Of a stretch of DNA of 2,789 nucleotides, positions 1 through 2,789 are shown piece after piece. The notes below the pieces were generated by a model. The model had not been told where the DNA came from. It saw only the letters and a program-made list of their open reading frames with translations, and searched no databases. The stretch is taken from the IMG/VR virus record IMGVR_UViG_2778261350_000011, positions 1 through 2,789 of that record; one strand, 5' to 3'. The translations under genes were made by a program, and so were the position numbers. The stretch is from a virus. Taxonomy: Duplodnaviria > Heunggongvirae > Uroviricota > Caudoviricetes. Position 1 is the first letter of the stretch; the number at the start of each line of letters is the position of its first letter.

Positions 1-201
1 TTACCCATTGGCGCGGCTTAAGAGCTTATTTTTGAATTCACAATGGTCACGATATAACCATCTTGCTCGCCCGTGGATAACTTTGGCTTTTGGCAGGTCG
101 CCGGACTTAATCCGGTCATAGATGAAGGTTTTACCAAAGCCAGTATCAGCCATGATGAATTTCAAATCAACCAGTGAATCAGGCTGTAGTTCGTGTTGCA
201 T
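1..201 (-). CDS. xis: Excisionase-like small DNA-binding protein (AlpA/Xis family, winged-helix type), 66 aa
   Basis: Complete ORF on minus strand: ATG at 199-201, TAA at 1-3. AGGAG at 211-215 (minus) lies 9 nt upstream of the ATG. The segment TFIYDRIKSGDLPKAKVIHGRARWLYRDHCEF fits the AlpA/Xis pattern (T-IY-W-like helix, then G-FP-P-K-G, then R-W). It is the last gene of the leftward array, where lambda-type prophages place xis ahead of int. Family call is from memory and position only. Confidence 0.6.
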   Translation of the reverse strand: MQHELQPDSLVDLKFIMADTGFGKTFIYDRIKSGDLPKAKVIHGRARWLYRDHCEFKNKLLSRANG

Positions 202-243: not shown

Positions 244-270
244 AATAAAAAACCGCCATCAGGCGGCTTG
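244..270 (-). terminator. Rho-independent terminator on minus strand
   Basis: Minus-strand transcript reads aaGCCGCC-tgat-GGCGGtt followed by UUUUUUAUU. The GC stem is 253-257 paired with 262-266, extendable by G.U and A.U pairs; the U-tract is 246-252. The hairpin overlaps the TGA stop (259-261) of the upstream small ORF and sits just upstream of the xis-like gene. Confidence 0.55.
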
Positions 271-461: not shown

Positions 462-773
462 TTATTCGATTCGCACACCTGGTATTTCGCCTTTTGAAAT
501 GGCTAAGTCATAAATTTGCGCAGCACTATACCCATCTCGCATCCATGAATCTAAGGCGCGAACAGCCTCGCTACGCTTTTTATCTTCTCTCTCATTTTTG
601 ATATCAACGAGGACATCAACGCAATTAAGGCATATGTGGATTTTGTCCTTACATTCGATCATGGCGGCTTTACCATGATTTCCGCCACACAGTGAGCATA
701 AATCTTCAGGGTCTGGCTGGTATTTCTGTAACGTTAGAGGGTTGAATGTTGAACAGGCCATAATCATCTCCAT
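462..773 (-). CDS. Hypothetical protein with C4 zinc-ribbon (C-x2-C-x18-C-x2-C), 103 aa (99 aa if started at ATG 759-761)
   Basis: Minus-strand ORF with TAA at 462-464. Three in-frame ATGs at 771-773, 765-767 and 759-761; only the third has well-spaced SD (GGAG then 6 nt). Cys26/Cys29 and Cys48/Cys51 (nt about 621-698) form a classic four-Cys zinc-ribbon spacing, followed by a charged helical-looking C-terminus. Function unknown. Confidence 0.65.
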   Translation of the reverse strand: MEMIMACSTFNPLTLQKYQPDPEDLCSLCGGNHGKAAMIECKDKIHICLNCVDVLVDIKNEREDKKRSEAVRALDSWMRDGYSAAQIYDLAISKGEIPGVRIE

Positions 774-800
774 AAAACAAAACCCGCCGTAGCGAGTTCA

Positions 801-828
801 GATAAAAGAAATCCCCGCGAATGCGAGG
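801..828 (-). terminator. Putative intrinsic terminator on minus strand (tL-like) between the ASCH gene and the zinc-ribbon gene
   Basis: Minus-strand RNA reads CCUCGC-auuc-GCGGGG (813-828), a 6-bp stem with one G.U pair, followed by AUUUCUUUUAUC (801-812). On the plus strand the same stem has a C-A mismatch, so the structure favours the minus-strand transcript. It begins 4 nt after the TAA (833-835) of the upstream gene. Confidence 0.5.
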
Positions 829-832
829 ATTG

Positions 833-1117
833 TTATTCATTGCTGATATTCACCTTTATCGCGTATACCTTTACCGGTTTATCGCCGAAGTGGGGATGTG
901 TGATTGTCTTGATTTCATATCCGTCATACGGGACATCAATTCTGCGACTGAAGTCGTCGCGCTTCGGATATCCCTTTGTGATAATCAGGCGGTCATACTT
1001 ACGGTTAACGAGGCGCTTTTTCCAGTAGTCATTACACAGGCGATACTCTTCCGTTTTCTCTCCGCGAATCATGGCATCGAAGTATTCACCTTTAACGGCA
1101 AGTTGCAGGTTAGCCAC
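833..1117 (-). CDS. ASCH/PUA-like domain protein, 94 aa
   Basis: Minus-strand ORF with GTG start at 1115-1117 preceded by a perfect AGGAGG (1124-1129, minus) and 6-nt spacer; TAA at 833-835. The start overlaps the upstream gene's stop by 8 nt (GTGGCTAA). LAVKGEYFDAMIRGEKTEEYR ... YDRLIITKGY ... GYEIK ... VKVYAIKV matches the ASCH (PUA-like beta-barrel) pattern as I recall it; not verified by search. Confidence 0.7.
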   Translation of the reverse strand: MANLQLAVKGEYFDAMIRGEKTEEYRLCNDYWKKRLVNRKYDRLIITKGYPKRDDFSRRIDVPYDGYEIKTITHPHFGDKPVKVYAIKVNISNE

Positions 1118-1508
1118 GGTTAACCTCCTGCCTCGGTTCTACTGCAAAATACGCAATACCTTTATCCCAGATGGATTTTATGGTCGTCCACGTGACTGGT
1201 ACTTTAATTTCAATCCGCCCGCTACCGTCACAGGTATCGCAATCATCATCGCCAAAACATTCCGGGCAGCTTATAAACGTCGTTTCTGAAAATTCACCGG
1301 ATAGCACACCCTTAGCGCCGTTCTCAGCGGTTAGTTTCTTCGGCACTATAACCCAACCATCCGGAATTACCGGAGAGTTGCCAGCATTGCGCATGGCAAT
1401 CTCCACGATTTCAACCATATCTCCTGGCGGAATTTTGCAATGCTGACCAAAGCGCCTCTGCTGCCTGGCATACTCGAGGATGTGCTCCAGCTTGGTACTA
1501 TTAATCAT
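1110..1508 (-). CDS. Hypothetical protein with DnaJ-type cysteine-rich zinc-finger motif (CxxCxGxx-x-CxxCxGxG), 132 aa
   Basis: Minus-strand ORF: ATG at 1506-1508, TAA at 1110-1112. GGGAGA sits 6 nt upstream of the ATG. The ATG overlaps the TGA of the upstream gene (ATGA, 1505-1508). Residues 81-97, CPECFGDDDCDTCDGSG (nt 1218-1268), form a tandem CxxCxG zinc knuckle like the DnaJ cysteine-rich repeat. The N-terminal half has PDGWVIVPKK, which resembles motifs common in enterobacterial prophage proteins. Confidence 0.7.
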   Translation of the reverse strand: MINSTKLEHILEYARQQRRFGQHCKIPPGDMVEIVEIAMRNAGNSPVIPDGWVIVPKKLTAENGAKGVLSGEFSETTFISCPECFGDDDCDTCDGSGRIEIKVPVTWTTIKSIWDKGIAYFAVEPRQEVNRG

Positions 1509-2150: not shown

Positions 2151-2789
2151 TCACTCTCCTTTCCCCTGAAGCATGGCGTTGCTCCGCTCTATACCATCCA
2201 GCGCGATTCGCAGTGCCTGAATTGTGGTAATGCTATCGTTTGGGGCTATTCCATATCGCTCGAATACAGCGATATGACCGCGCATAATCTCAGGCGTAAG
2301 CTCTTTGTAAGCATAAGCAAGCGACCCTGATGCATTATCCGGCACTACTGGCGATGGCTGTTTAGCTTCTAAATCAGCAATTCTGTCAACCACGGCATCG
2401 ACGGCATCTGAAAAACTGAAACAGTTACTCCACTCCGGCCTATCCCCGGTTGCTGCAAAATACATATCAGATAAAGCAGACTCAGCATTGTCACGCTCAT
2501 TGATGAGTTGCTCTTCGCTTTCCTCCAGCTCTGCAATGCGTTTGCTTTGGGCTTCTCGTTCATCCAACAGCGCCTGCGCTACTTCAGGGTTGAAAGCTGC
2601 GATATAACGAGCGTTGTTCTCTGCGTTTTTCTGTCCATCAAAGCCGGTCCATTTGATGACGTCTTCACATCGTTCATCACCGGGCGTGTGCACCGCATAA
2701 GTACCAGTATCCGTCGAAATAAATGCGACCCATTCGCCTGGTGTTGCCTTTTCTGCCGCCTCACGCAGTACCTGATAGTCAATTGTCAT
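2151..2789 (-). CDS. Ead/Ea22-like family protein (conserved N-terminal domain, central coiled-coil, variable C-terminal domain), 212 aa
   Basis: Minus-strand ORF: ATG exactly at the window edge (2787-2789), TGA at 2151-2153. The N-terminus (LREAAEKATPGEW ... NARYIAAFNPEVAQALLDE) followed by a Glu/Leu-rich heptad-like stretch (RIAELEESEEQLINERD) matches my recollection of the Ead/Ea22-like family of lambdoid early-left genes. The upstream region is outside the window, so the true start and promoter cannot be judged. Confidence 0.72.
   Translation of the reverse strand: MTIDYQVLREAAEKATPGEWVAFISTDTGTYAVHTPGDERCEDVIKWTGFDGQKNAENNARYIAAFNPEVAQALLDEREAQSKRIAELEESEEQLINERDNAESALSDMYFAATGDRPEWSNCFSFSDAVDAVVDRIADLEAKQPSPVVPDNASGSLAYAYKELTPEIMRGHIAVFERYGIAPNDSITTIQALRIALDGIERSNAMLQGKGE

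Follow-up and report, generated by a model that had tools for sequence, protein, structure and literature searches.

The question raised by this locus is what kind of protein is encoded by a short reading frame among the early genes of a temperate phage, and what such a protein could do to the infected host. The DNA analyzed was a 2,789-nt stretch of a Caudoviricetes record (IMG/VR IMGVR_UViG_2778261350_000011, positions 1 to 2,789), referred to as the window over its full length. It contains eight ORFs, all on the minus strand, and the features located in it are collected in Table 1.

Table 1. Positions of the predicted ASCH gene, its sequence signals and its neighbors in the window.
Feature	Position	Strand	Description and basis
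TorI/excisionase-like HTH gene	1..201	minus	phrog_66; RefSeq homologue annotated 'torI'; marks the int-xis end of the early-left operon
Third terminator-like hairpin	250..269	minus	between the 60-aa ORF and the TorI-like gene
103-aa ORF downstream of the ASCH gene	462..773	minus	phrog_3680; homologue of 933W L0063
Second terminator-like hairpin with T-run, in tandem	780..799	minus	before ORF 462-773; consensus scan, pattern match only
Terminator-like hairpin with T-run	810..831	minus	directly after the ASCH stop codon; consensus scan, 9 pairs, 5 G-C; pattern match only
Gene of a predicted ASCH-superfamily protein	833..1117	minus	94 aa; GTG start 1117-1115; TAA stop 835-833; ORF list
Octapeptide G-E-K-T-E-E-Y-R, residues 19-26	1040..1063	minus	ASCH GxKxxExR, 'GKER' type; predicted catalytic/ligand-binding strand
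Overlap of the ASCH start codon with the stop codon of the upstream 132-aa ORF	1110..1117	minus	8 nt, GTGGCTAA; ORF coordinates
132-aa ORF upstream of the ASCH gene	1110..1508	minus	EaA/DUF551-like mosaic; phrog_24004, phrog_60 and phrog_924 matches
Shine-Dalgarno sequence AGGAGG	1124..1129 (plus-strand numbering)	minus	6 nt 5' of the GTG; read from the sequence
Ead/Ea22-like gene	2151..2789	minus	PF13935, E 7.6e-24; upstream end of this exo-xis stretch

The frame at 833-1117 is a real gene and no chance ORF, because it is under purifying selection, has 1,306 related cluster representatives, and is present in 332 phage genomes. When the ORF was compared pairwise with 87 homologous loci, median dN/dS values of 0.09–0.19 were obtained across identity bands, i.e., purifying selection acts on it (dN/dS about 0.1–0.2). 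The cluster representatives (clustered at 50% identity, with 437 reaching E ≤ 1e-10) were collected in an exhaustive profile search with the protein family, and the sequenced phage genomes by tblastn. In PHROGs, the protein was matched end to end by phrog_625 (E 9e-50), which is annotated there as 'unknown function'. An earlier, sequence-only reading of this DNA had taken the ORF to encode a 94-aa protein, and both the exact coordinates and the selection acting on the frame bear this out.

The stop codon of the upstream 132-aa ORF within the overlap GTGGCTAA is TAA, and the 8-nt overlap of start and stop implies translational coupling. An overlap of 1–8 nt with the upstream stop codon was nearly universal among 111 related loci (8 nt in 57, 1 nt in 36, and 4 nt in 6). 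In many database entries (P0004, P0009, P0017, etc.), the gene product is given a longer N-terminus (108–138 aa), and L0064 of phage 933W (AF125520.1; L001:2133-2498) is annotated as 121 aa, overlapping L0065 by 89 nt. Because the 94-aa form has a strong Shine-Dalgarno sequence and conservation begins at its M-A-N-L-Q, the longer annotated starts look mis-annotated.

For the fold of the product, ASCH/PUA-like had been suggested from motif recognition, together with a Pfam search as a check. In that search, the protein's own score on the Pfam ASCH model (PF04266) was 14.6 bits (E 0.054), below the gathering cut-off of 21.2 bits, and the match was confined to residues 6–29, aligned with profile positions 1–24 (for comparison, E. 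coli YqfB scored 77 bits). The assignment did not stand for the protein taken singly, but it stood for its relatives: the ASCH model was matched by 19 of 40 close and 33 of 70 diverse homologues, the latter being 40–78% identical to the 94-aa protein, with a best E of 4.3e-5, which corresponds to about 25 bits by our conversion and lies above the cut-off. DUF3850 (PF12961) was matched by 15 of the 70 diverse homologues at sub-threshold scores (best E 9.3e-4, about 20 bits when converted, vs. 22.9; 18.8 bits and E 0.0018 for P0168), and the 94-aa protein itself had no Pfam match to it. Apart from these two, no family recurred in more than three of the 70 diverse homologues. The protein had no match in NCBIfam, and no ASCH chain was retrieved when PDB chain sequences were searched with the single protein and two family profiles. 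The PDB sequence matches to a beta-xylosidase, ribosomal protein L15, and a designed protein were rejected as chance matches.

The AF2 model of the 94-aa protein had a pLDDT of 84.6, and ASCH proteins were its top fold matches by two fold-search methods. In the model, the octapeptide was placed on strand β2 after helix α1, as expected for ASCH. Its residues G19, K21, E24, and R26 were invariant in the 40 close homologues; among the 70 diverse homologues, K21 was still invariant and G19, E24, and R26 were at least 90% conserved, likewise W32, R35, G49-Y50-P51, G66, H74, and F77-G78. Because of the family-level Pfam matches, the octapeptide on β2 with its invariant Lys, and the agreement of the two fold searches, the protein very probably belongs to the ASCH superfamily (PUA-like). 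The fold proposed in the sequence-only reading was thus upheld by the Pfam matches of the family, the octapeptide, and structure prediction with fold search. The ASCH label is already public and not new: in RefSeq and UniRef, the protein and its relatives are named 'ASCH domain-containing protein' (e.g., WP_000002107.1), and a few records instead say 'RNA-binding protein' or 'DUF3850'.

Within the superfamily, the octapeptide pattern GxKxxExR is common to the phage protein and the GKER-type ASCH proteins (TthASCH, 2DP9; human EOLA1; the ASCH domain of TRIP4), as are the single β-barrel domain and the helix between β1 and β2. An aromatic residue is found nine positions before the Lys in both TthASCH (Tyr14/Lys23) and the phage protein (Tyr12/Lys21). 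The phage protein differs from these three, which come from cellular chromosomes, in being phage-encoded and in having fewer residues (94 vs. 121 or more aa). Neither pairwise nor profile comparison gave a significant sequence match to GKER-type ASCH proteins, and no counterpart of TthASCH Tyr81 was identified. In YqfB (PF04266; PDB 9KYF/9KYH), the nucleophile is Thr24 ('GKTR'), part of a Lys-Thr-Glu74 triad, whereas the phage protein has Glu24. When the 70-sequence family profile was aligned with E. coli YqfB in hhalign, the result was not significant (probability 0.5%), the sole local match being the octapeptide, in register, and no counterparts of YqfB Glu74, His70, and Tyr89 were identified in the phage protein. 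Membership of the YqfB-type (GKTR) group was rejected on the Glu24 at the Thr24 position and the absence of a significant profile match.

The best structural match was an Enterococcus faecalis protein ('activating signal cointegrator', 3IUW), which may belong to DUF3850; its identity to the phage protein was only 15–19%. Zymomonas mobilis ZmASCH (5guq) and its mutant structures were recurrent structural matches in both fold searches. ZmASCH (5GUQ) has about 143 aa with extra elements, i.e., about 50 residues more than the phage protein, and is reportedly an ssRNA-specific ribonuclease; no counterparts of Tyr47 and Ser128, its key residues according to PDB mutant entries, were identified in the phage protein. 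A remote structural relative was found in BFVD (A0A8S5UN54; 25% identity, TM 0.76), a 168-aa protein of an uncultured phage named 'Restriction alleviation protein'. The EVE and YTH readers (PH1033, 1WMM; YTHDC2, 6K6U; VcaM4I, 6YEX; THYN1, 5J3E) ranked below ASCH proteins in the fold searches. They do not have GxKxxExR, and according to the literature, they read methylated bases with aromatic cages. The EVE and YTH Pfam models were matched by none of the 70 diverse homologues, and EVE/YTH membership was rejected on this result and the lack of an identifiable aromatic cage.

Gene order in the window matches that of the xis-to-exo region in phage 933W and in an E. coli prophage. The homologous block of 933W is flanked by xis on one side and by exo, bet, and gam on the other; in the prophage, its flanks are torI and, at the other end, recT, kil, and the repressor. 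By this synteny, the DNA belongs to the exo-xis part of a leftward early operon, that of a lambdoid or Stx-like prophage, in agreement with the phage early region named in the sequence-only reading. No phage or E. coli record spans 80% of the window, and parts of it are 90–99% identical to sequences in hundreds of lambdoid phages, Stx-converting ones included, i.e., the DNA is a mosaic. Published work on the exo-xis region covers orf60a/63/61/73, ea22, and ea8.5, not the ASCH ORF, and no paper linking ASCH with this region was found in the accessible literature.

Several neighbors are mosaic or carry weak domain matches. The upstream 132-aa protein is Cys-rich, with a DnaJ-type zinc-finger-like motif CPECFGDDDCDTCDGSG (CxxCxGxxxCxxCxGxG), and looks chimeric, its N-terminal 53 residues corresponding to phrog_24004 and its C-terminal part to phrog_60; only weak Pfam matches were obtained for it (Anti-TRAP, AVR-Pik). 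Weak matches to the ClpX C4-type zinc finger were obtained for the product of the downstream 103-aa ORF (Pfam E 0.015; NCBIfam ClpX E 0.002, residues 23–69). The TorI/excisionase-like protein matched PADLOC 'mad1' (mads_1) over its full length (E 7.6e-14), which is probably explained by an AlpA/Xis-type HTH common to both, and not by a role in defence. In the Ead/Ea22-like protein, residues 1–146 correspond to phrog_250 and residues 136–211 to phrog_6847, with a weak PADLOC match to RmrT (E 0.001, residues 134–181).

Seven terminator-like sites were counted in the window (2.6 expected from shuffles), and a single, weak promoter-like site, which is fewer than expected. With such hairpins and so little promoter-like sequence, the ASCH gene presumably depends for its expression on antiterminated read-through from pL. 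The Rfam matches to RsmY (18 bits) and STnc130 (27 bits) were sub-threshold and were rejected as hairpin-driven noise.

The phages that carry the ASCH gene include HK022, 933W, many Stx phages, phiV10, many Salmonella siphoviruses, Ralstonia phage RSA1, and an Erwinia phage. Prophage-like contexts were found in gamma-, beta-, and alpha-proteobacteria, Cetobacterium, one planctomycete, and one Desulforhopalus genome. When neighbors were examined in 34 diverse genomes and 80 viral contigs, no conserved gene partner was found besides a tyrosine integrase, the sole recurrent neighbor, located 1–2.5 kb downstream on the same strand in 14 of the 34 loci from diverse genomes. DNA methylases were present near the gene in a few loci, with no conserved linkage to any methylase or nuclease. 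The gene immediately upstream belonged to at least two unrelated families (38 and 37 of 111 loci), and the downstream genes varied. The ASCH gene therefore behaves as a self-contained cassette with no dedicated partner, and the 132-aa upstream ORF is not a conserved partner of it.

Some enterobacterial prophages (L083, L086, L090, L094) have the ASCH cassette in the rightward early operon instead, namely in its nin region, where NinB and antiterminator Q follow downstream. Copies in the nin region and in the exo-xis region thus point to movement of the cassette between the two early operons. Unrelated upstream genes share the C-terminal tail ...QEVNRG or ...QEVNHG along with the 8-nt overlap (window 1110-1135; L003, L012), which apparently places the joint of the mosaic recombination within the final few codons of the gene preceding the ASCH gene. 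The ribosome-binding site of the ASCH gene is located within the same codons.

Fusions were sought among 150 representatives of the family, where the long forms were mostly read-through gene calls into the upstream ORF. The apparent fusions P0121 and P0122 were in-frame read-throughs from the upstream gene, P0121 including the 132-aa protein of the window. The remaining extensions were heterogeneous tails (Cys-rich in only 8 of 129), and one extended homologue contained a weak reverse-transcriptase fragment (E 0.007). No informative domain fusion was found among the 150 representatives, and no Lar or other anti-restriction Pfam domain was detected in ten extended homologues.

Published work on other ASCH proteins suggests an activity for the phage protein. 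YqfB is an ac4C amidohydrolase, and its K21A, T24A, and R26A variants are inactive (PMC6972931). In an unreviewed preprint, ASCH proteins are split into GKTR (YqfB-type) and GKER octapeptide groups, and Lys and Glu are reported as essential for ac4C removal in TthASCH, EOLA1, and TRIP4 (bioRxiv 10.64898/2026.02.27.708502). [quoted passage not shown] According to the same source, ZmASCH, whose motif is GKER-type, deacetylates tRNA in vitro, and an earlier report is cited in which ZmASCH, TRIP4, and EOLA1 do not hydrolyse free ac4C (bioRxiv 10.64898/2026.02.27.708502).

By analogy with these enzymes, we propose, at a probability of roughly 0.3, that the phage ASCH protein is an N4-acylcytidine (ac4C) amidohydrolase acting on tRNA or nucleosides, since its motif is of the GKER type, Lys and Glu are among its most conserved residues, and the spacing of the aromatic residue is that of TthASCH Tyr14. 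As a very probable ASCH protein of the GKER type, it is minimal and stand-alone, and temperate phages carry its gene in their antiterminated early operons as an accessory cassette. The cassette has no predicted promoter of its own, and its translation is probably coupled to whichever gene precedes it. A cytidine-type nucleoside or RNA loop would be held in the cleft of β2 by Lys21, Glu24, and Arg26, and the conserved Tyr12/Phe13, Tyr50, His74, and Phe77, assumed to cluster in one pocket, would complete the cleft. The bound substrate would then lose its N4-acyl group by hydrolysis, which would make the protein an ac4C amidohydrolase or a tRNA ac4C 'eraser'. Candidate substrates in E. coli would be, most obviously, ac4C34 of elongator tRNA-Met or else free ac4C.

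Several observations speak against an amidohydrolase. The key preprint is unreviewed and partly contradicts the earlier report on GKER proteins, and all characterised ASCH enzymes are longer than the 94-aa phage protein. Its own Pfam match is sub-threshold and limited to residues 6–29, the family profiles reach no PDB ASCH chain, the hhalign probability against YqfB is 0.5%, and YqfB Glu74/Tyr89 as well as TthASCH Tyr81 are without identified counterparts. Furthermore, E. coli already has YqfB, the deletion of which leaves tRNA ac4C unchanged (bioRxiv 10.64898/2026.02.27.708502), and the gene neighborhood yields no pathway link. The further step, in which a minimal ASCH enzyme of temperate phages, Stx-converting phages and HK022 included, strips N4-acetyl or other N4-acyl groups from host RNA early in infection or upon induction, is quite improbable at present. 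It may take the form of ac4C34 removal from tRNA-Met, retuning decoding, or of the reversal of GNAT-type toxin or defence acylation.

The sequence-only reading had instead proposed a binder of modified nucleic acid that evades or triggers defence, a proposal for which no conserved partner gene, informative fusion, or defence-library match was found. As a non-catalytic reader, the barrel would bind a modified DNA or RNA base like EVE, YTH, and SRA domains, and would shield phage nucleic acid from, or act as a decoy for, modification-dependent (type IV) restriction or a similar system. This is unlikely: the readers rank behind ASCH proteins in each of the two fold searches, and the top conservation falls on the catalytic set of Lys, Glu, and Arg, with no identifiable aromatic cage. 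The 94-aa protein has no match in PADLOC, the extended homologues carry no Lar or anti-restriction domain, and no methylase or nuclease is linked to the gene in a conserved manner. The DNA of lambdoid phages has only ordinary host-type methylation, which also counts against a reader. In the accessible literature on ASCH and anti-defence, no paper was found that characterises the family as anti-defence proteins. The hydrolase model is more likely than the reader model. An RNA-binding protein or an ssRNA-specific ribonuclease similar to ZmASCH, acting on host or phage transcripts or tRNA with no deacylation, is likewise doubtful. ZmASCH recurs among the structural matches and has a GKER-type motif too, RNA binding was the original prediction for ASCH, and 'RNA-binding protein' is the name given in some database entries; such labels, however, are propagated predictions, and ZmASCH is about 50 residues longer, with Tyr47 and Ser128 lacking identified counterparts in the phage protein. 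Deacetylation of tRNA by ZmASCH in vitro also blurs the distinction from an amidohydrolase (bioRxiv 10.64898/2026.02.27.708502).

Two further explanations were weighed. The protein could be a counter-defence deacylase, a diffusible 'antitoxin' that strips acyl marks set by host GNAT-type toxins or defence modules. We consider this very unlikely, and to our knowledge, there is no experimental precedent for such an ASCH protein. ASCH proteins are amidohydrolases, the gene moves widely as a cassette among phage accessory regions, and unexplained ASCH genes occur in (PIN)-GNAT-EVE operons, all of which would fit; the acetylation target of the known GNAT toxins, however, is the alpha-amino group of aminoacyl-tRNA rather than cytidine N4 (PMC7641849). 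No GNAT gene turned up in the neighborhoods of the phage gene in 34 diverse genomes, and the argument for this role is entirely inferential. The other explanation is that the ASCH resemblance is a generic likeness between small β-barrels and that the protein has another role, e.g., as a protein-protein inhibitor or structural adaptor. It is highly improbable, as ASCH and DUF3850 are the sole recurrent Pfam families among the 70 relatives, two methods return ASCH proteins as top folds, the octapeptide with its invariant Lys is at the expected place, and the NCBI pipeline gives the same ASCH name.

The result confirms an existing database label, and leaves the anti-defence idea with no computational support. 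The family is very widespread and conserved, with about 1,300 clusters at 50% identity and 332 sequenced phages that carry it, Stx phages of medical relevance among them. Its members have kept the Lys/Glu/Arg motif, i.e., the residues that work from 2020–2026 has tied to catalysis of ac4C deacetylation. If the ac4C activity is true, phages would edit the host epitranscriptome, and if the eraser reading is true, this would be the first example of a phage-encoded RNA-modification eraser.
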